Source: Acidobacteriota bacterium (GTDB lineage Bacteria; Acidobacteriota; Vicinamibacteria; Vicinamibacterales; CAVVIG01). From it: a stretch of DNA of 64,000 bases. How positions within the stretch are numbered: position 1 is the stretch's first letter; each line of letters starts with the position of its first letter. The stretch spans positions 1,546-65,545 of the forward strand of contig QHWJ01000345.1 in the NCBI GenBank assembly GCA_003222535.1. The letters run 5' to 3'. Below the pieces are notes generated by a model, which searched no databases, had not been told where the DNA came from, and worked only from the letters and a program-made list of their open reading frames with translations. A program made the position numbers and the translations under genes. Positions 23,494-60,587 of this stretch are shown piece after piece.

Positions 23494-23728
23494 AGGTCGG
23501 GTGGGTCGGGTAGGTCGGGTGGGTCGGGCTTGCCCGCCGTAGCTCGCATCGGCCAAGGCGCGTGAGCGAAGGCGGGTGGGTCAGGTAGGTCGAGTAGGTC
23601 GCGTGGGTCAGGGCGGTCGCGTGGGCCAGGTAGGTCGAGGGGTCAGGTACTTCGAGTAGGTCTGGTGGGTCGGGTAGGGGTAGGTGGGTCGAGTAGGTCA
23701 GGTGGGGCAGGGAGGTCGGGTGGGTCAA
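23494..23728 (+). repeat. degenerate hexamer/dodecamer array (GGTSGGGTRGGT-like), G-rich on the + strand
   Basis: There are two blocks (23494-23530 and 23571-23728). The core GGGTGGGTCGGGTAGGTCGGGTGGGTCGGG at 23499-23528 has six G3 tracts. The array ends one base before the ATG of the next gene. Confidence 0.85.
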
Positions 23729-25345: not shown

Positions 25346-28184
25346 ATGAAACTTCGTTTTATCGCTCTCGCGGCGCTCGCGCTCTTCATCACGAGCGGAG
25401 AGGCGGGCGCGCAGATTCAGGGCGGCAACCTGACCGGCGTGATCAAGGACGACCAGGGTGGTGTGCTGCCGGGCGTCCTGGTCACGGCGCAGGGTGTCGA
25501 CGCGACGCGAACCTTCACGACGGAATCGAACGGCGAGTTCCGTTTCCTCAACCTGGCGCCAGGTCCGTACAAAGTGACGGCCGTTCTGCCGGGCTTCACG
25601 ACGCTCGTGCGCGAGGGCATCGTCGTCGCGGTCGGCAAGAACGTCGAGCTTCCGATGACGCTCAAGATCGCGGCGGTCGCTGAAACGATCACCGTGAGCG
25701 GCGAGTCGCCCGTCATCGACACGAAGGCGACCGGCACGGCGACCAACTTCACCTCCGACGAGCTCACGAAGATCCCGACGTCGCGCGATCCGTTCGCGCT
25801 CATGCGCTCGGTCCCCGGCGTGCTGGTGGACCGCGTGAACATCGGCGGCAACGAGACCGGCCAGCAGTCCAACTTCGCCTCCAAGGGCACGCGCCCGCAG
25901 GACGCCGTCTGGACACTCGACGGTATCGTCGTCACCGACATGGCGGCGACCGGCGCCTCGCCGACGTATTTCAACTTCGACAACTTCGAAGAGATCCAGG
26001 TGTCGACGGCGGGCCAGGACATCAAGCAGCCGACCGGCGGCATGGGGCTGAACTTCGTGGTCAAACGGGGCACGAACCAGTTCCATGGCGGCGTGCGGGG
26101 CTACTTCGACAGCGAGGGCATGGAGAGCGACAACGTACCCGCGGAGCTGCGCGCGGCTGGTGTAACGCACGCCACGACGGATCACAACAAGCAGATCTCC
26201 GACTACGGCCTGGACATAGGCGGCCCCATCCTGAAGGACAATGCCTGGTTCTACGGCTCGTACTCGATTCAGGACATCCGGCTCGTTCGCCGCGCGGGCG
26301 CATTGGTCGATCGCACGCAGCTCAAAAACCCGAATATCAAGCTGAACTGGCAGGCCACCAAGAGGGACATGGTGAGCTTCCTGTATCTCGACGGCTTCAA
26401 GATCAAGGACGGCCGCAGCCCGGCGACAGCCGGCATCAACTTCGACGCGCCGACGGCGACCTACCACCAGGACAACGCCTATGCCGATACGCTGCTTCAC
26501 GGCCTCTGGAAGCTCGCCGACGACCGCGTCATCGGTTCGAACATGTTCCTGTCGGCGAAGTACGCGTACTACAACACGGGATTTGTCCTGGATCCGATCG
26601 GCGGCCTCGACCTGCAGGCGGGCCGGAGCTTCACCACGGCCCAGTCCTTCGGCTCGATCAATCAGAGCCTCAACGTCCGGCCCCAGAAGGTGGCCAACAT
26701 CGACGCCAATTCATTTCTGAACGCAATGGGGGCGTCGCACGCTGTGAAATACGGATTGCGTCTACCGGCAGGGATCGGGTGGCAATCGCGCCGACTACCT
26801 CGATTTCTACGCCGGCGACACGATCACCCGGAACCGCGTCACCGTGGACGTCGGGATTCGCTACGACCGCCAGTGGGGCAAGGCGCTGCCGTCGAACACG
26901 CTGGCGAACGCGGCGTTCCCAAACGTCGTGCCCGGCATCGTGTTCTCCGGATACGACGCGCCGTTCACCTGGAACAACTTCTCGCCGCGCGCGGGCGTGA
27001 CGTATGCTCTCGATCAGGCGCACAAGACCGTGGCGCGGGCAAGCTACGCCGGCTACTCGGGACAACTCAACACCGCCGCGGTCGGCTACGTGAATCCGAC
27101 GTCGACCGCGGGGTATGCCGCGTACCGCTGGGCCGACACGAACGGCGATCATCTCGCGCAGGCGAACGAGGTGAACCTCAATCAGTTCATCACGGCCGCC
27201 GGCGGCTTCAACCCGGGCAGCCCGACCGCCGTCACCTCGGCGAATCGGATCGATCCGAATCTGAAAGCGCCACGGACGCAGACCGTTGTAGCAGGCATCG
27301 ATCGCGAGCTGAGGCCCAACCTGGCGCTGCAGCTGAACTACAGCTACACCCGGACGTCGAGCCTGTTCGGCAACTTCACCGGTCCGAACACGCCTCGAGT
27401 GGGTGTGACGCTCGCCGACTACACCCCAGCGCCAATCGGCTTCGCTGGCACGCTCCCTGACGGCACGCCGTATAACGTGACCACCTACATCCCGAGCGCC
27501 GCGAAGATCGCGACCGGCGGAAACGGCTTCCTCCTCACGACGATTCCTGACTTCTACACCGACTACCATGGCGTCGAAGTCAGCGTCGTGAAACGGCTGT
27601 CGAACAGGTGGATGGGCCGCGTCGGGTTCTCATGGAACAACGCCCGCGAGCACTTCACGTCGCCGGCGGGCCGCTACGACACGAACGGCAATCCGACGCC
27701 GACGACGACAGAACCTCTCGTGGATGGGGGGCAGTTCGTCCCGCAGGCGGGCGCCAGCGGTCTGACGTCGTACATCAACGCCAAGTGGCAGTTCAACGCG
27801 AACGGACTCTATCAGGCCCGATACGGCATCGAGGTCAGCGCGAATGTCTTCGGCCGGCAGGGCTACCCGTTCCCGCTCTTCCGCCAGAGCGCTTCGGCCA
27901 TCACGAGCGCCGGCGCCATGGGCGCGGACTCGGGTCTGCAAGTGCTCGTCACGCCGACAATGGACTACTTCCGATACGACAACCTGTGGGATACCGACCT
28001 TCGTGTTGCGCGCGCGTTCAAGTTCCAGCGATTGAACGTGCGCGCGATCGGCGATCTGTTCAACCTGCTCAACGCAAACATGGTACTCGTCAGGAACAAC
28101 AACCTCGCGTCAACCTCATTCAACGCAATCTCGCAGAACCTCAGCCCGCGGATTTTCCGCGTCGGCCTTGTCGTCGGGTTCTAA
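25346..28184 (+). pseudogene. TonB-dependent receptor with N-terminal CarboxypepD_reg domain, interrupted by a +1 frame change near 26762
   Basis: AGGAGG lies upstream and a signal peptide is present. GVIKDDQGGVLPGVLVTAQ marks CarboxypepD_reg and a plug follows (DELTKIPTSRDPFALMRSVPGV). The terminal F (RVGLVVGF) is in the second frame. The frames join as ...SHAVKYGLR | YRQGSGGNRADYLDFYAGD... Confidence 0.7.
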
Positions 28185-28206
28185 TGCGTTTCGGAGGTTT
28201 GTTTCA

Positions 28207-28235
28207 GGGCGGGGCGGCCGGCCCCGCCCTTTTTT
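28207..28235 (+). terminator. Rho-independent terminator of the receptor gene
   Basis: The stem gggcggggc / gccccgccc has a 5-nt loop and is followed by TTTTTT. Confidence 0.85.
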
Positions 28236-28261
28236 GTTATCCTGACCCCGGAACCGGTGAG

Positions 28262-29170
28262 TTGATCAAAGAGCATCTCGTTCACGCGTTCGCACACGCC
28301 GCCCTCAGCCCCGATCCCGATCTCGCGGTGGCGGCGCTGATGATCGCGCGCGTCGAGTACCCCAGGCTCGACGCCGGACTCTATCTCGATCGGCTTGATG
28401 CCATCGGCCGCGAGGCCGGACGCCGGGTCGCCGCCGCGGGGGCCGCGACCCGCGATGCGCCCCCGGATGTGGATGCCGACCGTTACGCCCAGGTGATGGC
28501 ATTGAACGACTACCTGTTCGACGAGATGCGCTTCGTCGGCAACCAGGAGCAGTACGAAGATCCGCGCAACAGCTTCCTGAACGAGGTGCTCGATCGTCGC
28601 ACGGGGATTCCCATCACGCTCGCCCTGCTCTACATGGAAGTCGCCAGGCGGGCGGGCCTCCACGTCGAAGGCGTCAACTTCCCGGGGCACTTTCTGCTTC
28701 GGTGTCCGGCCAGACGAGGCCTGCGATACGCCGAGGATCTCATCATCGACGCGTTCCACGGCGGCGCGGTGCTCTCGCGGGAGCTGCTTCGGCACCAGGC
28801 CGGTGCGCGCGAAGACGAGGAAGATCCGGCGCGGTACGAGTCGCGCCTGCTGCCCCACGCGACCAAGCCGCAGATCCTGTCGCGGATGCTGATCAATCTC
28901 AAGCGGGCCTACGTGCGGATGCTGTCGTTCCCGCAGGCGCGCGACGTCACCGAGCTGCTCGTCGCCGTGGATCCGTCGGCGATCAACGAGCTGCGCGACC
29001 GCGGATTGCTGGCGTACCATCTGAAGGATTTTTCAGCCGCGCTCCGCGATCTCCAGGCGTTCCTCCAACTCACGTCGACCGTCAAGCTGGACTACGACGA
29101 GCGCAAGGATCGCGCGCAAATCTGGGAACATGTGAAGACGCTTCGCAAGAGGGTGGCTTCGCTCAACTGA
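28262..29170 (+). CDS. SirB1/YchA-like transglutaminase-like + TPR protein
   Basis: NSFLNEVLDRRTGIPITLALLYMEVARRAGL...GVNFPGHFLL is followed by a TPR-like tail. The TTG start at 28262 lies downstream of the terminator. The ORF-track start (27608) is an artefact. Confidence 0.7.
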   Translation: MIKEHLVHAFAHAALSPDPDLAVAALMIARVEYPRLDAGLYLDRLDAIGREAGRRVAAAGAATRDAPPDVDADRYAQVMALNDYLFDEMRFVGNQEQYEDPRNSFLNEVLDRRTGIPITLALLYMEVARRAGLHVEGVNFPGHFLLRCPARRGLRYAEDLIIDAFHGGAVLSRELLRHQAGAREDEEDPARYESRLLPHATKPQILSRMLINLKRAYVRMLSFPQARDVTELLVAVDPSAINELRDRGLLAYHLKDFSAALRDLQAFLQLTSTVKLDYDERKDRAQIWEHVKTLRKRVASLN

Positions 29171-29181
29171 GGCTCCGCCTC

Positions 29182-29277
29182 GTCATGGCTGATGCTTACA
29201 TCCGCTTGTCATGGCTGATGGCTAATGGTCCGGGCACTCCATAGACCATAGCCATTAGCCATCAGCGATCAGCCATG
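29182..29277. repeat. heptamer-built hairpin (TGGCTRA)n ... (GCCATYA)n
   Basis: gtcatggctgatggctaatggtc (29208-29230) pairs with gaccatagccattagccatcagcgatcagccatg (29245-29277). It lies between two convergent genes, and the stop of the minus-strand gene sits in the right arm. Confidence 0.8.
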
Positions 29278-34410: not shown

Positions 34411-35193
34411 CTACTGTCTTCGAATCGCCTGCAGCGTGAAGTCCTCGTCCTTGAGCGGCAGGTTGTATTCCAGCTTCTCGAGCGTCATCCGCGTGCGAGT
34501 GCCGCGCTTGAGGTCCGACATCTCGAGCAGCCGGGCGGTCCATATGCCCTGCACGTTCTGAAAACCGGAGTAGTTCAGGCGGCGCACGACCAGGTCCTTC
34601 ACGTAGCTCTCGATCCGCGCGAACGCGTAGTTGTCTTTCCGGATCCACACGATCGATCGCGTGTACTGCGACGACCTGGATTCCCGCGGGGTCGACTGAA
34701 TCTTCCAGCAGGCGGCCCCGTCCACGGCTTCCTCGCCGCCGAGCGCGTACTCGTACTGGCTGACGTCCCGCTCCTCGAGGTCCTCGAAGCTGAAATCGGT
34801 GCCGAAGAATCTCGTCGAGCGGTCCTGCAGCGCGATCCGGCGGTCGCGCTCGATGGCCGGCGTCCACATCCACTGGTCCGACGCGCGGTCGGGATGGTTG
34901 ACCACGAGGAGCGCCACGCCCTTCACTTCCGCGGGCAGCGTGAAACGCAGCACGACCCTGCTCTGCCCGTGCGAGCCGAGCCGCTCGAGGGTCCACCGTT
35001 TGTCACTGATCCTGCCGTTGTGGTCGAACACCTGCAGCAGCCCTTCGTAGCGCTGCGACCTGGCGTCGGTGCGCTTTTGCGCTTCCTCGACGATCTGACG
35101 GGCGTTGTCGGCTGCGTTCATTGGATATCGCCAGGCTGCGAAGAGTGCCACGCAGACGAACAGCGTTTTTCCTGGCCGACCTGGCCGACCCAC
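34411..35193 (-). CDS. LolA-like outer-membrane lipoprotein-sorting protein family (PF17131-like)
   Basis: WMWTPAIERDRRI, FFGTDFSFEDLEERD and the body length are typical of LolA_like proteins. The start is uncertain: the GTG at 35193 gives the signal peptide MGRPGRPGKTLFVCVALFAAWRYPMNA. Confidence 0.7.
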   Translation of the reverse strand: MGRPGRPGKTLFVCVALFAAWRYPMNAADNARQIVEEAQKRTDARSQRYEGLLQVFDHNGRISDKRWTLERLGSHGQSRVVLRFTLPAEVKGVALLVVNHPDRASDQWMWTPAIERDRRIALQDRSTRFFGTDFSFEDLEERDVSQYEYALGGEEAVDGAACWKIQSTPRESRSSQYTRSIVWIRKDNYAFARIESYVKDLVVRRLNYSGFQNVQGIWTARLLEMSDLKRGTRTRMTLEKLEYNLPLKDEDFTLQAIRRQ

Positions 35194-35252
35194 CCGACCT
35201 ACCTGACCCACCCGACCTGCCTCGCCTACCTGACCCACCTGACCCACCTGCC
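35171..35252 (-). repeat. degenerate hexamer array, G-rich on the minus (sense) strand
   Basis: The plus strand reads cctggccgacctggccgacccacccgacctacctgacccacccgacctgcctcgcctacctgacccacctgacccacctgcc. It is the same family as 23494-23728. It begins 2 nt from the permease stop codon, and the chosen LolA-like start (35193) lies within it. Confidence 0.85.
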
Positions 35253-47785: not shown

Positions 47786-47828
47786 TAGGGGTTAGGGCTT
47801 ATGGCAAAGGGCTTAGGGCTTAGGGCTC
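47786..47828. repeat. (GGGCTTA)n heptamer array
   Basis: taggggttagggcttatggcaaagggcttagggcttagggctc lies between the thiI stop and the aldolase start. It shares ggcttatggcaa with 59900. Confidence 0.75.
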
Positions 47829-49038
47829 AAAGACTCCCTGGCATGACGTCTGATATCTGTGCAGCCGAGTATTGTACCACCGGGAATCGAAAGTCCTCCA
47901 CGGACGCGGCGGCCACGGCCGAGGCGACCATGGCATCGACGGGAAGCGCCAGCTCGGCCTGTTCGACCTGGGCGAGCCTCGCGCGCGTCGCTGGATGGCG
48001 CGGCGTGAACAGCGTGCAGCAATCCTGGTCGGGAATGTTCGAGATGGGCAGCGTGCCGATCCGTCCCGCTTCCGCGGTGATCTCGTCCTTGTCCATCCCC
48101 ACGAGCGGCCGCAGGATCTCGAGTGCCGTCGCCTGCGCGATGGCCGTCATGTTTTCGACCGTCTGCGACGCCACCTGCCCGACGACTTCCCCCGTCACCA
48201 GCGCGCGGGCATGCGCCCGCCGCGCCAGGCGCTCGGCGATACGCAGCATCAGACGCCGATAGATCACGACGCGCAGCTCGGGCGCCACGGAGAGGACGAT
48301 CTGCTGCTGCAGCTCGCCGAACGGCACCATGATCAGGCGCGATCGGAGCTGATGGGTCGTGAGCAGCGCGGCGATCTCGCGGACCTTCTCCTGGGACGCG
48401 CGCGACAGAATCGGGTAGCTGTGAAAATGAATCAGCAGCACCGGGCAGCCGCGGCGCATCATGCGATACGCGGCGACGGGGGAATCGATGCCGCCCGACA
48501 GCAGGCACGCCACACGGCCGCTCGTTCCCGTCGGCATGCCGCCCGCGCCCGGCTCTTTGCCGAAGAAATAGAACGCGCCGTCCGGCAGCATCTCGATGTG
48601 CACGGTAAGGGCGGGGTGCTCGAGATCGACGCGCCAGCCCCTCGCCTGCTTGATGATCCCGCCCACTTCGCGTTCGACCTGCGGCGACGTGAACGGCAGC
48701 CGCTTGTCGGAACGCGTGGCCGAGACGCGGAACGAGTCGGCCTCACGGCCGCCCAGGTCGGTGAGAATTGCGGACGACAGCGCGCCGAAGTCGTGCGGGC
48801 CCCGATTGGCGTACGAGAAGTTCGCGATGCCGAACACCCGCCGCAGCCGATCCCGCACCTCGTCCCACGGCGTGTCCGGTCGCAGCTCGAGCTCGATGCG
48901 ACCGGTAACCGATCGCACGGCCGCCACGTGCAGCCCCGCGAGCGCGCCTTTGATATTGCGCACGAGCAGCTGAATGAACCACGGGCGGTTCTTGCCCTTC
49001 AGCGCAAGTTCCTTGTAGTGAACAACGATCGACTTCAT
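47827..49038 (-). CDS. thiI: tRNA 4-thiouridine(8) synthase ThiI
   Basis: MKSIVVHYKELALKGKNRPWF (THUMP region) and LLSGGIDSPVA (PP-loop) are present. ATG at 49038. The ORF-track N-terminus is translated repeat. Confidence 0.9.
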   Translation of the reverse strand: MKSIVVHYKELALKGKNRPWFIQLLVRNIKGALAGLHVAAVRSVTGRIELELRPDTPWDEVRDRLRRVFGIANFSYANRGPHDFGALSSAILTDLGGREADSFRVSATRSDKRLPFTSPQVEREVGGIIKQARGWRVDLEHPALTVHIEMLPDGAFYFFGKEPGAGGMPTGTSGRVACLLSGGIDSPVAAYRMMRRGCPVLLIHFHSYPILSRASQEKVREIAALLTTHQLRSRLIMVPFGELQQQIVLSVAPELRVVIYRRLMLRIAERLARRAHARALVTGEVVGQVASQTVENMTAIAQATALEILRPLVGMDKDEITAEAGRIGTLPISNIPDQDCCTLFTPRHPATRARLAQVEQAELALPVDAMVASAVAAASVEDFRFPVVQYSAAQISDVMPGSL

Positions 49039-49040
49039 GA

Positions 49041-49196
49041 ATCTGGTAATTGGGTAATTGGGTAATCTGGTAATCTGGTAATTGGATTGGGTAATTGGGG
49101 TCATTGATTGGGTAATTGATTGGTTGATTGATTGGTTGATTGAGCCGTCAATCGTCAAATTCAATCACCCGATTACCAGATTACCCGATTACCAGA
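49041..49196. repeat. composite array: (GGTAATY)n, (TTGATTGG)n, then inverted (GATTACC)n
   Basis: ctggtaattgggtaattgggtaatctggtaatctggtaattgg is followed by gattgggtaattgattggttgattgattggttgattg. Then comes cccgattaccagattacccgattaccag. The array fills the hpnE-thiI gap and includes the hpnE stop. Confidence 0.85.
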
Positions 49197-59446: not shown

Positions 59447-59540
59447 GCTCACCATGAGGCGCTCATCCTGAGCCCTTCGACTCGCCGCTCATCCTGAGCC
59501 TGTCGAAGGATGAGCCGCTCGCTCAGGACAGGCCTGTCGA
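59447..59540. repeat. dispersed ~95-nt palindromic (REP/MITE-like) element, copy B
   Basis: See 12914-13006. Both copies have the same orientation. Confidence 0.75.
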
Positions 59541-59562
59541 AAGCCAGACTTTCACCACGGGC

Positions 59563-59571
59563 TGTTAAGAT
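59563..59571 (+). promoter_or_regulatory. extended -10-like element TGtTAAGAT, 8 nt before the FHA ATG
   Basis: ctgttaagatacgcgtcaATG has no SD. Confidence 0.35.
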
Positions 59572-59579
59572 ACGCGTCA

Positions 59580-59864
59580 ATGTGGATCCTGCGGAGCGCC
59601 GAGACCGAGACGACGTTTCGCCTGCGATCCGGCGCCGTCAAGACCGTCGGCCGCGCGCCGCGCGCCGACTTCGTCGTCCATGCCGCCCTTGTCTCGCGCC
59701 TGCACTGCCGGCTGACCGCCACCGACGACAATCTCGAAGTGGTGGATCTGACGAGTACGAACGGCACGTTCGTCAACAACAGACGCGTCGAAAAGGCGCA
59801 TCTGTCGGCGGGCGATCGTCTTCGCGTGGGACGCGTGGAGTGGATCGTCATGGCTGAGGGCTGA
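59580..59864 (+). CDS. FHA domain protein (stand-alone, 94 aa)
   Basis: VGRAPRADFVV...VSRLHCRL...DLTSTNGTFVNNRRV is the FHA signature. Confidence 0.85.
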   Translation: MWILRSAETETTFRLRSGAVKTVGRAPRADFVVHAALVSRLHCRLTATDDNLEVVDLTSTNGTFVNNRRVEKAHLSAGDRLRVGRVEWIVMAEG

Positions 59865-59954
59865 GGGCTGAGGCAGCTCGTCATGGCCGAGGGCTAATGG
59901 CTTATGGCAATGGTGGATGGTTCCGTCTTTCGGCCATCAGCCATCAGCCATGAC
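59847..59954. repeat. heptamer-built hairpin (GGCTGAG/GGCTAAT)n ... (GCCATCA)n
   Basis: gtcatggctgagggctgagggctgagg...gtcatggccgagggctaatggcttatggcaatgg pairs with ggccatcagccatcagccatgac. Both convergent genes stop inside it. Confidence 0.8.
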
Positions 59955-60587
59955 AAGAAACGGATTGGTGCGGCGCTCGTGGCCGATGGTGGTGTCGGGT
60001 CCGTGTCCCGGATGAACGATGGCATCGTCGCCGAACGGGAAGAGGACCGTGCGGATCGAGGAGATCAGCGTGTTGAAATCGCCTCCCGGCAGATCCGTGC
60101 GGCCGATCGCGCCGGCAAACAGCGTGTCGCCGACGAACAGCTCCTTCGCCGTTCGGCCTTTTTTGCCGACCTGGAGACAGACGCCGCCGGGGCAATGACC
60201 CGGCGTGTGGTGCGGCCGCACTTCGCAGGCGCCGAACACGATGACGTCGCCCGGCGTGTAGAACACGTCGATCGGCGGCTGGGGCTCGACCGTCAGGCCA
60301 AACATCGCCCCCGACTCGACGGCGCGCTCGTAGAGAAACAGATCGTCCCGATGCAGGTAGACGGGCGCGCCGAGGAGTCGCTTCGCGGCCGCCACGCCGG
60401 TGACGTGATCGACGTGGGCGTGGGTCAGCAGAATGTGCCGGATCGCCAGCGCGTTGCGCCCGGCGAACGCCAGCAGGCCTGCCACCTCGTCGCCGGGATC
60501 AACGAGCACGGCGTCCCTGGTCTCTTCACAGCCGACCACGAAGCCGTTCTTGAAGAATGGGCCGACGGCCTGACTCTCAATTATCAT
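59937..60587 (-). CDS. MBL-fold hydrolase (glyoxalase II-like)
   Basis: ILLTHAHVDHVTG, TPGHCPGG and GDTLFAGAIGRTD are present. Confidence 0.9.
   Translation of the reverse strand: MIIESQAVGPFFKNGFVVGCEETRDAVLVDPGDEVAGLLAFAGRNALAIRHILLTHAHVDHVTGVAAAKRLLGAPVYLHRDDLFLYERAVESGAMFGLTVEPQPPIDVFYTPGDVIVFGACEVRPHHTPGHCPGGVCLQVGKKGRTAKELFVGDTLFAGAIGRTDLPGGDFNTLISSIRTVLFPFGDDAIVHPGHGPDTTIGHERRTNPFLVMADG

Follow-up and report, generated by a model that had tools for sequence, protein, structure and literature searches.

Two convergent genes of unrelated function, one encoding an FHA-domain protein and the other an MBL-fold hydrolase, stop inside the two arms of a single heptamer-repeat hairpin in the DNA examined here (hereafter the window, meaning the whole 64,000-nt stretch analysed), and their products end in nearly the same residues. 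This raises the question of whether the repeat donates stop codons and short C-terminal tails to the genes that run into it, or whether the tail peptide or the position of the stop is itself selected.

The hairpin and the genes that end in it

The FHA gene ends as GTC ATG GCT GAG GGC TGA (protein ...VEWIVMAEG*) and the MBL gene, on the minus strand, as GTC ATG GCT GAT GGC TGA (protein ...NPFLVMADG*). The left arm covers the FHA stop and the last four codons of that gene, and the right arm covers the MBL stop and the last five codons. The open reading frame ends and the arm coordinates thus agree with the initial annotation, which had placed both stops inside the arms of one hairpin and had described the two tails as matching. 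Coordinates of all features are given in Table 1.

Table 1. Repeat elements of the window and the genes adjoining them.
Feature	Position	Strand	Remarks
Transglutaminase-like/TPR gene	27608..29170	+	No overlap with sister element
Sister hairpin, double head on left	29182..29277		Right arm gives tail MADR and stop 29262-29264
Endonuclease III / DNA-glycosylase-like gene, 230 aa	29262..29954	-	Weak NCBIfam matches
Single array, related unit (GGCTTAG/AGGGCTT)	47786..47828		Between thiI stop and start of next gene
thiI	47827..49164	-	Pfam ThiI 2.9e-67; tail ...MPGSL*
FHA-domain gene, 94 aa	59580..59864	+	ORF; Pfam FHA 2.2e-19
Outer left arm, head GTCAT and three GGCTGAG units	59847..59871		Holds FHA stop TGA 59862-59864
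Inner (second) left arm, CTCGTCATGGCC GAGGGCT AATGGCT TATGGCA ATGG	59877..59913		Direct and inverted repeat
Loop and degenerate inner units	59914..59929		Shared with orthologous element of the closest relative (L031)
Right arm, (GCCATCA)n and ATGAC	59930..59954		Holds complement of MBL stop 59937-59939
MBL-fold hydrolase gene, 216 aa	59937..60587	-	ORF; Pfam Lactamase_B 1.5e-24

In an inverted-repeat comparison the outer left arm and the right arm are 88% complementary, and the predicted RNA fold of the hairpin (-59.1 kcal/mol, z = -3.9) was equalled by none of 200 shuffles. The FHA stop (59862-59864) pairs in the predicted stem with 59939-59937, which is the MBL stop; the two stop codons are stem partners because both genes share one phase relative to the palindrome. 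The left side carries two tandem heads (at 59847 and 59880), which are spaced 33 nt apart and in frame with each other, and either of them is able to pair with the one right arm. The inner left arm is nearly a copy of the outer one (33 nt, in frame) and is without counterpart in the closest relative. The head GTCATGGCTGA is present in six copies within the 64-kb window, against 0.97 expected.

Rfam covariance models gave zero matches in 59500-60100 at E values up to 1. A terminator consensus scan found neither an intrinsic terminator nor a U-tract at the main hairpin, and coding sequence comes after both of its arms. The lack of a U-tract rules out a Rho-independent terminator here. The flanks of the hairpin (..GGATC / GTCATGG ... 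CCATGAC / AAGAA..) hold no direct repeat, which argues against a MITE with a target-site duplication, and by eye none was seen around the 35 hairpins listed for the genome.

Two further repeats in the window touch gene ends. The sister element folds as a hairpin (z = -5.2) and supplies the tail ...RTMADR* of the minus-strand gene to its right, while the gene to its left ends at a native stop 11 nt ahead of the outer head of the element. The initial annotation was correct about this donated TMADR-stop, as judged from the end of the reading frame and the fold, but its naming of the product as an HhH-GPD protein is plausible rather than established: the protein has no Pfam match, and its NCBIfam matches to endonuclease III and DNA glycosylases are all below threshold. 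The array beside thiI is a single arm that forms no hairpin. It contains ggcttatggcaa, in common with the hairpin repeats, and the thiI stop (TGA, 47827-47829) shares two bases with it, confirming that a related array adjoins this stop.

Tails of orthologues and of the same junction elsewhere

We compared the ends of the FHA, MBL and glycosylase-like proteins with those of orthologues from 30 same-family genomes and 77 metagenome contigs for MBL (~107 sequences), 30 sequences for FHA and 16 for the glycosylase-like protein. MBL orthologues are conserved up to NPFL and nearly all then carry unrelated tails of 0-12 residues (two have longer C-terminal extensions). For FHA orthologues conservation reaches GRVE(L)x(V) and for glycosylase-like orthologues CPEGxxR, and both are variable afterwards. 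Conservation thus ends at the repeat junction. Among the repeat-free orthologues of the three proteins, none shares the terminal residues found in the window, and the tails are therefore repeat-derived rather than ancestral coding sequence, which bears out the claim that the repeats donate stops and short tails to unrelated proteins. Judged from these sequences, the MA(D/E)G tails are a by-product of the repeat and do not appear to be a selected peptide.

The convergent FHA/MBL pair is syntenic throughout the family, with a stop-to-stop gap that ranges from overlapping genes to ~150 nt (one is ~1 kb). A GGCTGAT-family hairpin lies at this junction in eleven lineages (the source genome, reference genomes of two other genera, and eight contigs from metagenomes) with MBL identities of 71-93%. 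Both stops are within the arms in ten of the eleven, and in the remaining one (L108) only the FHA stop is. The MBL proteins of the eleven lineages end in VMADG (three cases), VMAKDG, VHG, VNG (two cases), VNS, QNG, RNG and RRAEG. The FHA proteins end in MAEG, MADG (three cases), RHG (two cases), MANG, MANS, AKG and ADG, and in L066 the FHA stop falls at the very start of the array to give ...MRPRPR*. There are thus eight distinct tails for MBL and, with L066 included, eight for FHA. Between lineages the junction of the repeat with the conserved protein core moves by 0-5 codons. Since frames and tails vary among lineages, the peptide is not conserved; as far as the alignments go, it is the DNA element that recurs or persists at this junction and not the peptide.

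In ~95 other lineages the junction is empty or occupied by different elements. Several of the other elements supply the stop as well, among them (TGATTGC)n, (ACTCTGA)n and (GCCCTAA)n repeats and a REP-like CGCTCGGCTGAAAGCC element that produces ...(S/T)LG* tails in five lineages. On the MBL tree, which is poorly resolved, the GGCTGAT-family element occurs in one half only (12 of 56 rows versus 0 of 51). Within that half of the poorly supported tree it is scattered, and its distribution requires 10 changes against a mean of 11.5 after shuffling. The tree does not distinguish repeated gain at the junction from a single ancient origin with many losses. Among the lineages compared we found no near-identical empty site and no filled/empty pair with a target-site duplication.

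An orthologous element with the same loop is present in the closest relative (L031, 93% MBL identity). Compared with that of the source genome, this element lacks the 33-nt second head, has one additional 7-nt unit in the right arm and has GAT for GAG in three units. Despite the difference in unit number, both proteins end in VMA(D/E)G in both genomes, because gain or loss of units in a uniform array leaves the first in-frame stop in place. The residue within the tail is set by the unit variant, with GAT, GAG, AAT and AAG giving D, E, N and K, respectively. We also considered a phase-variable simple-sequence-repeat contingency locus; the unit and 33-nt differences between these two genomes leave both protein ends as VMA(D/E)G, and we rejected it.

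Dispersed hairpins, gene ends and PF05635 cassettes

The assembly of the source genome (8.06 Mb, 65% G+C, 450 contigs, 95% complete) shows a marked surplus of period-7 and period-8 arrays when analysed with Tandem Repeats Finder. It holds ~1,176 non-redundant arrays of at least three copies with scores of different units, one of which, CCCCAGT, we take to be the STRR1 unit. The GGCTRAK family accounts for at least 107 loci and 142 arms with the layout GTCAT(GGCTRAK)n, loop and inverted arm. Genome-wide, the outer end of an arm has the head consensus gTcAT ahead of the first GGCT (in its fuller form (C/T)YGTCAT). At the inner ends, the degenerate units GGCTATGG TYGATGG ... CCATCRACC ATAGCC recur among copies, and the inner core GGCTATGGTYGATGG ... 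CCATCRACCATAGCC is similar among them.

All 35 GGCTRAK hairpins of the genome have the polarity F...R and none is R...F. Polarity is equally strict in all other hairpin families, irrespective of whether their units carry a stop triplet. It does not hold in general that an incoming gene meets the strand with the stop: across these families the stop is on the facing strand in 15, on the other strand in 11, on both in 6 and on neither in 33. The dispersed GGCTRAK hairpins of this soil bacterium look selfish. We also considered a cargo gene lying between an F arm and an R arm that are 907 nt apart (C14) and rejected it, since by eye its sequence resembles an ordinary short-chain dehydrogenase and not a mobility protein.

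To count gene ends we used a GC3-based choice of open reading frames, which gave an uncurated set of 6,799 genes (86% coding) and reproduces the genes of the window. An incoming gene end lies near 69 of the 142 GGCTRAK arms, and about a third of these genes (21 of 69) stop inside the array, at positions +5, +12 and +19 in 9, 10 and 2 cases, respectively. Four further genes stop in a partial unit at position -2 of an arm, and eight stop at -11, frequently as TGACGCTCGTCAT. The tails HG*, MA(D/E/N/K)G* and WLMADG* recur on unrelated proteins of this genome, with about ten of them ending in MA(D/E/N/K)G. Few genes use the frame that yields the longest tail (2 of 21, binomial p ~0.013), a depletion which suggests that the tails carry a small cost rather than a benefit. 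When all families with 7- or 8-nt units are taken together, 113 genes have their stop within an array, and 48 genes read through a stop-free array to end shortly beyond it. Overlap with a gene end is commoner among stop-carrying than among stop-free arrays (34% versus 22%, Fisher p = 0.001).

Some of these arrays flank a protein gene. The source genome has nine matches to PF05635, a family of small four-helix-bundle proteins named '23S rRNA intervening-sequence protein'. Inverted 7- to 14-nt arrays or their remnants lie on both sides of six of the nine genes, and the other three, of which two lie next to contig ends and one next to an N gap, show an array on a single side. The flanking arrays represent a different family at each gene (GGAATTT, GTCCTTG, GAGTTGGT, GATTGCAG, TAGTTAC, TTAGTCG and a 9-mer, GGTGGGTCG), and they belong to the array families of the genome itself. 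One gene (C370:9383-9754; 58.9 bits against a cut-off of 33.8) has a GGCTGAT arm with the head CTTGTCATGGCT and the upstream sequence CTTGTCATGGCTAATGGCT..., and it is preceded by CTTGTCATGGCTAATGGCTAATGGCTGATGG..., a stretch of this arm that bears the head of the main hairpin and even has it in doubled form. The right arm of this cassette is missing from the assembly, where it falls in an N gap at C370:9755-9759.

GGCTGAT-type arms are also found at PF05635 orthologues of 76-82% identity in seven other Vicinamibacterales/Acidobacteriota MAGs. Four of these have both arms (L136-L138 and L141) and three have one (L139, L143 and L144), the single arm being explained by a gene or locus that is cut. 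At 57-58% identity, homologues bear (GGCAGAT/GGCAAAT)n arms and retain the GTCATGG head, and those at 36-48% identity have unrelated arrays. The arms thus track the level of protein identity and co-vary with the protein. Dispersed hairpins and PF05635 cassettes have equal polarity, and the cassette arms are similar, at their inner ends, to the degenerate inner units of the hairpins. For AAGTCTG, CCCCAGT, AATCCGC and other large families, no PF05635 partner was detected in this 95%-complete, 450-contig assembly. Because arms like those of the main hairpin also flank a PF05635 gene, the hairpin looks like a gene-less copy of the cassette, and by this resemblance the element at 59847-59954 is most likely a copy that lost the gene by internal deletion.

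Proposed origin, alternatives and known systems

We consider it probable that the hairpin is a gene-less copy of a dispersed palindromic element lying over gene ends that are unconstrained, and that the tails are by-products. The element consists of a head ((C/T)YGTCAT), a GGCTRAK heptamer array, degenerate inner units, a loop and the mirror image of these parts. The short hairpins would most likely be internal-deletion derivatives of the PF05635 cassette, comparable to MITEs with respect to insertion sequences and to REPs with respect to RAYT genes. Elements may settle or creep within intergenic space, and where convergent ends are tightly packed the tolerated space would extend only into the final few codons, which are free of constraint. 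The unit presents TGA or TAA on the strand facing an incoming gene. Since the unit contains TGA and its period of 7 is coprime to 3, every reading frame is closed by three units, and this closure can be read directly from the repeat. An invaded gene would then keep its conserved domain, gain one of three tails (HG*, MA(D/E/N/K)G* or WLMADG*) and be insensitive to subsequent gain or loss of units. The match between the FHA and MBL tails, like the pairing of their stops, follows from a fusion of both genes with the palindrome at one phase, and the tails may be neutral or slightly costly. The elements would have arisen at these sites by insertion rather than by growth in situ.

For genome annotation, this means that in this lineage repeat-derived codons probably close more than 100 genes per genome, whose final residues and stops are then not orthologous between relatives and are not to be read as functional motifs. 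The repeat is able to enter gene ends without damage because its TGA-carrying 7-nt unit is frame-proof, and the FHA/MBL pair offers a natural series of eleven lineages with more than 15 distinct repeat-derived tails over both genes.

Alternatively, the position of the stops in the stem might be selected as a regulatory device that tunes the output of both convergent genes, either because a terminating ribosome melts the outer stem or because a cut by RNase III leaves a non-stop mRNA. Arrays do crowd gene ends in the source genome, where 419 stops are located up to 30 nt upstream of a 7- or 8-nt array in addition to the stops inside arrays, and the FHA/MBL junction is occupied in all of the lineages described above with both stops nearly always in the arms. 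The double head fits such a device in that the inner arm could pair while the outer one is covered by a ribosome. In E. coli, ribosomes stall and translation is reduced where a REP follows a stop by no more than 15 nt (Liang, Rudd and Deutscher 2015, cited in PMC12306157), RNase III cuts mid-stem in 23S rRNA intervening sequences with PF05635 ORFs (as described in a section of PMC4990558), and the non-stop idea has already been proposed for a MITE in Coxiella enhC (PMC5896051). However, the structure is dispensable, since at many orthologous junctions a hairpin is lacking or the two genes overlap, and the position of the stop within the stem varies between lineages. The absence of a U-tract leaves no canonical terminator. 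Both stops lie inside arrays at 12 of 157 convergent junctions, against ~10 expected from independent sides, and with double-stop junctions at this chance level we reject a special coupling of the two stops. We therefore regard a regulatory role as unlikely.

The arrays might instead grow independently from local seeds by replication slippage, with shared tails reflecting convergent expansion of heptamers. Heptanucleotides are the commonest long simple sequence repeats in many bacteria, for which polymerase slippage has been proposed (Mrazek 2007, as cited in part of PMC4679880), the source genome holds its many arrays in many different units, and unit number differs between it and its closest relative. 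Independent slippage does not predict, however, that all copies share a non-repeat head (GTCAT), a similar degenerate inner core and a strict polarity, nor that the arms enclose a cognate gene for a protein and vary with it from one genome to another, and we judge this explanation to be very improbable.

That MA(D/E)G is a selected C-terminal tag (a degron, for example, or a motif for sorting or interaction) spread by the repeat is hardly credible: although it ends about ten unrelated proteins and VMADG closes the MBL protein in three lineages, the DNA repeat and its phase fix the tails, orthologues with the same element family end in NG, HG, NS, RHG, ADG or MANS instead (VNG, VHG, VNS, RNG, RHG, ADG and MANG at this junction), all three frames are in use with only the longest tail depleted, stop-free families yield read-through tails (the 48 cases above) and repeat-free orthologues carry unrelated tails, so that the suggestion in the initial annotation that the peptide itself is selected is not supported.

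Returning to the gene-less copy of a dispersed element, one may ask what the PF05635 protein does. It could be the recognition or mobility factor of its own heptamer-armed hairpins, in a REP-RAYT-like manner, with gene-less copies persisting as a slippage-proof gene-end module. This proposal is tentative and, on balance, we doubt it. If true, the partnership would join the hairpins to a protein without known catalytic activity, and the gene-end module would combine an all-frame stop on both strands with a hairpin at the RNA 3' end, a reading that would help to explain the dominance of 7-nt units among bacterial intergenic simple repeats. In the papers searched, we found no link between PF05635 genes and dispersed heptamer hairpins. 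The link provides a testable handle on the unexplained excess of heptanucleotides in bacteria.

Stop donation by heptamer repeats is a phenomenon already published, and the more interesting part is the element family together with its cognate four-helix-bundle gene. Heterocystous cyanobacteria have abundant intergenic tandem heptamers (STRR), with several unrelated sequences per genome. Repeats of the types GGGAATC and GGGGA(C/T)T, reportedly described by Rehm in 2015 from Xanthomonas and Nostoc, are said to have been discussed in terms of G-quadruplexes or unknown roles. The genome studied here is like these in having several unrelated intergenic tandem heptamers. To our knowledge, the papers on STRR and GGGAATC-type repeats do not deal with stop donation or with a link to a protein-coding cassette.

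REP/BIME elements of E. coli and Pseudomonas are dispersed extragenic palindromes concentrated just after stops, and RAYT is a single-copy protein gene flanked by its own REPs. The partner here is a PF05635 four-helix bundle, whereas RAYT is an HUH Y1 transposase. The only PF01797 match in the source genome (C216:39994-40323) is flanked by the classical REP GTCCGGCTTCAGCCGGAC, and GGCTRAK arrays are absent within 1.5 kb of it. With the sole Y1 transposase gene bordered by GTCCGGCTTCAGCCGGAC REPs and by no GGCTRAK/GGCTGAT arrays, we reject membership of the hairpins in the REP/RAYT system.

TAACTGA heptamers form direct repeats in marine Beggiatoaceae, Cyanobacteria and Bacteroidetes (MacGregor 2015, PMC4679880). 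In the forward orientation they contain stop codons in all three frames, and they overlap upstream stops (PMC4679880). Both systems place tandem 7-nt units at gene boundaries (PMC4679880). The TAACTGA arrays, however, are direct and lie mostly just upstream of starts, with one of 170 sets inverted and no protein gene reported (PMC4679880), whereas the arrays described here are the arms of palindromes whose head and polarity are fixed and which have a cognate PF05635 gene.

A second parallel is with small mobile palindromes. In Coxiella, QMITE1 and QMITE2 overlap the 3' ends of functional genes and can supply C-terminal residues and the stop, and EnhC of the Dugway strain gained 33 residues from QMITE2 (PMC5896051). 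Enterobacterial RU/ERIC elements also overlap gene 3' ends and supply C-terminal residues, according to a section of PMC2759123. These MITEs and small mobile repeats are, like the hairpins, non-autonomous palindromes, and they cover the last 1-50 bp of functional genes (PMC5896051 and, in part, PMC2759123). MITEs have transposon-type terminal inverted and direct repeats and give tails of arbitrary length (PMC5896051 and the same section of PMC2759123), whereas the tandem-heptamer arms close every frame within 21 nt and so produce tails that are short and stereotyped.

A parallel in gene content is with the intervening sequences of 23S rRNA that carry an S23p/PF05635 ORF in Coxiella and Leptospira and are regarded as selfish (a section of PMC4990558). 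PF05635 also shares homology with Avd, a protein found in diversity-generating retroelements (PMC10053308). Like the cassettes, the intervening sequences have a small four-helix-bundle ORF bordered by inverted repeats and a long stem (PMC4990558, same section). They sit in helix 45 of 23S rRNA, and that section of PMC4990558 mentions neither tandem-heptamer arms nor gene-less copies. Unlike them, the cassettes described here lie between protein genes and are accompanied by about a hundred gene-less hairpin copies.

The FHA/MBL junction with and without its hairpin

At the 3' end of the FHA gene, which converges on the MBL-fold gene, a 33-nt stretch is nearly duplicated in frame (window 59845-59910); if the first TGA were read through, translation would add GLRQLVMAEG before reaching the second stop, TAA. 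The near-duplication is absent from L031, the closest relative (93% MBL identity). Several other relatives (L028, L054, L072, L074, L083, L087 and L105) have no hairpin between the convergent FHA and MBL genes, which overlap or abut, so this junction can do without the hairpin.

Stop and start codons at the ends of the GGCTRAK element

Across the whole source genome, the stop codon of eight genes lies exactly 11 nt ahead of the first GGCT, often as TGACGCTCGTCAT, a sequence that includes the small palindrome TGACG..CGTCA. The end of the GGCTRAK element may reach further outward and bring its own TGA.

The element's arms also bracket a gene for a PF05635 four-helix bundle, and in several Vicinamibacterales genomes the chromosomal position of this GGCTGAT-armed gene is conserved (Table). 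At one counterpart, L136, and apparently at L137 too, the other strand of the head GTCAT provides the start codon, ATG, of a gene running divergently, whose N-terminus (MTRITL...) resembles a signal peptide. The end of the element can therefore supply not only stops but also a start codon.

Other arrays in the source genome lie beside PF05635 genes. The 9-mer family GGTGGGTCA / GACCCACCT adjoins one at C309:10693-11004, where the contig end cuts off the other side of the gene. Around the partial gene on C204, the arm order looks opposite, the sole apparent polarity exception seen.

Table. Repeat-associated features in the window and its source genome
Feature	Position	Locus	Repeats	Counterparts
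Long array	window 23495-23727		9-nt unit, GGTGGGTCA / GACCCACCT	
Long array	window 35176-35250		9-nt unit, GGTGGGTCA / GACCCACCT	
PF05635 gene, partial	C204:37659-37823	L134	14-nt units on flanks, CGGCTGACAGCAGA	
PF05635 four-helix-bundle gene	C370:9229-9754	L130	GGCTGAT arms	L136-L138, L141
Y1/RAYT-like transposase gene (single in genome)	C216:39994-40323	L149	classical REPs on flanks, GTCCGGCTTCAGCCGGAC	

REP-like sequences at the FHA/MBL junction

The MBL stop codon of five lineages (L006, L044, L062, L070 and L095) shares bases with CGCTCGGCTGAAAGCCTCGCGC, a REP-like element unrelated to GGCTRAK, and the resulting tails match one another, ending in ...(S/T)LG*. With these, the MBL gene provides a second example of tails derived from a repeat. 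The REP type that flanks the Y1/RAYT-like gene occupies the gap between the FHA and MBL genes in other genera (L025 and L069).
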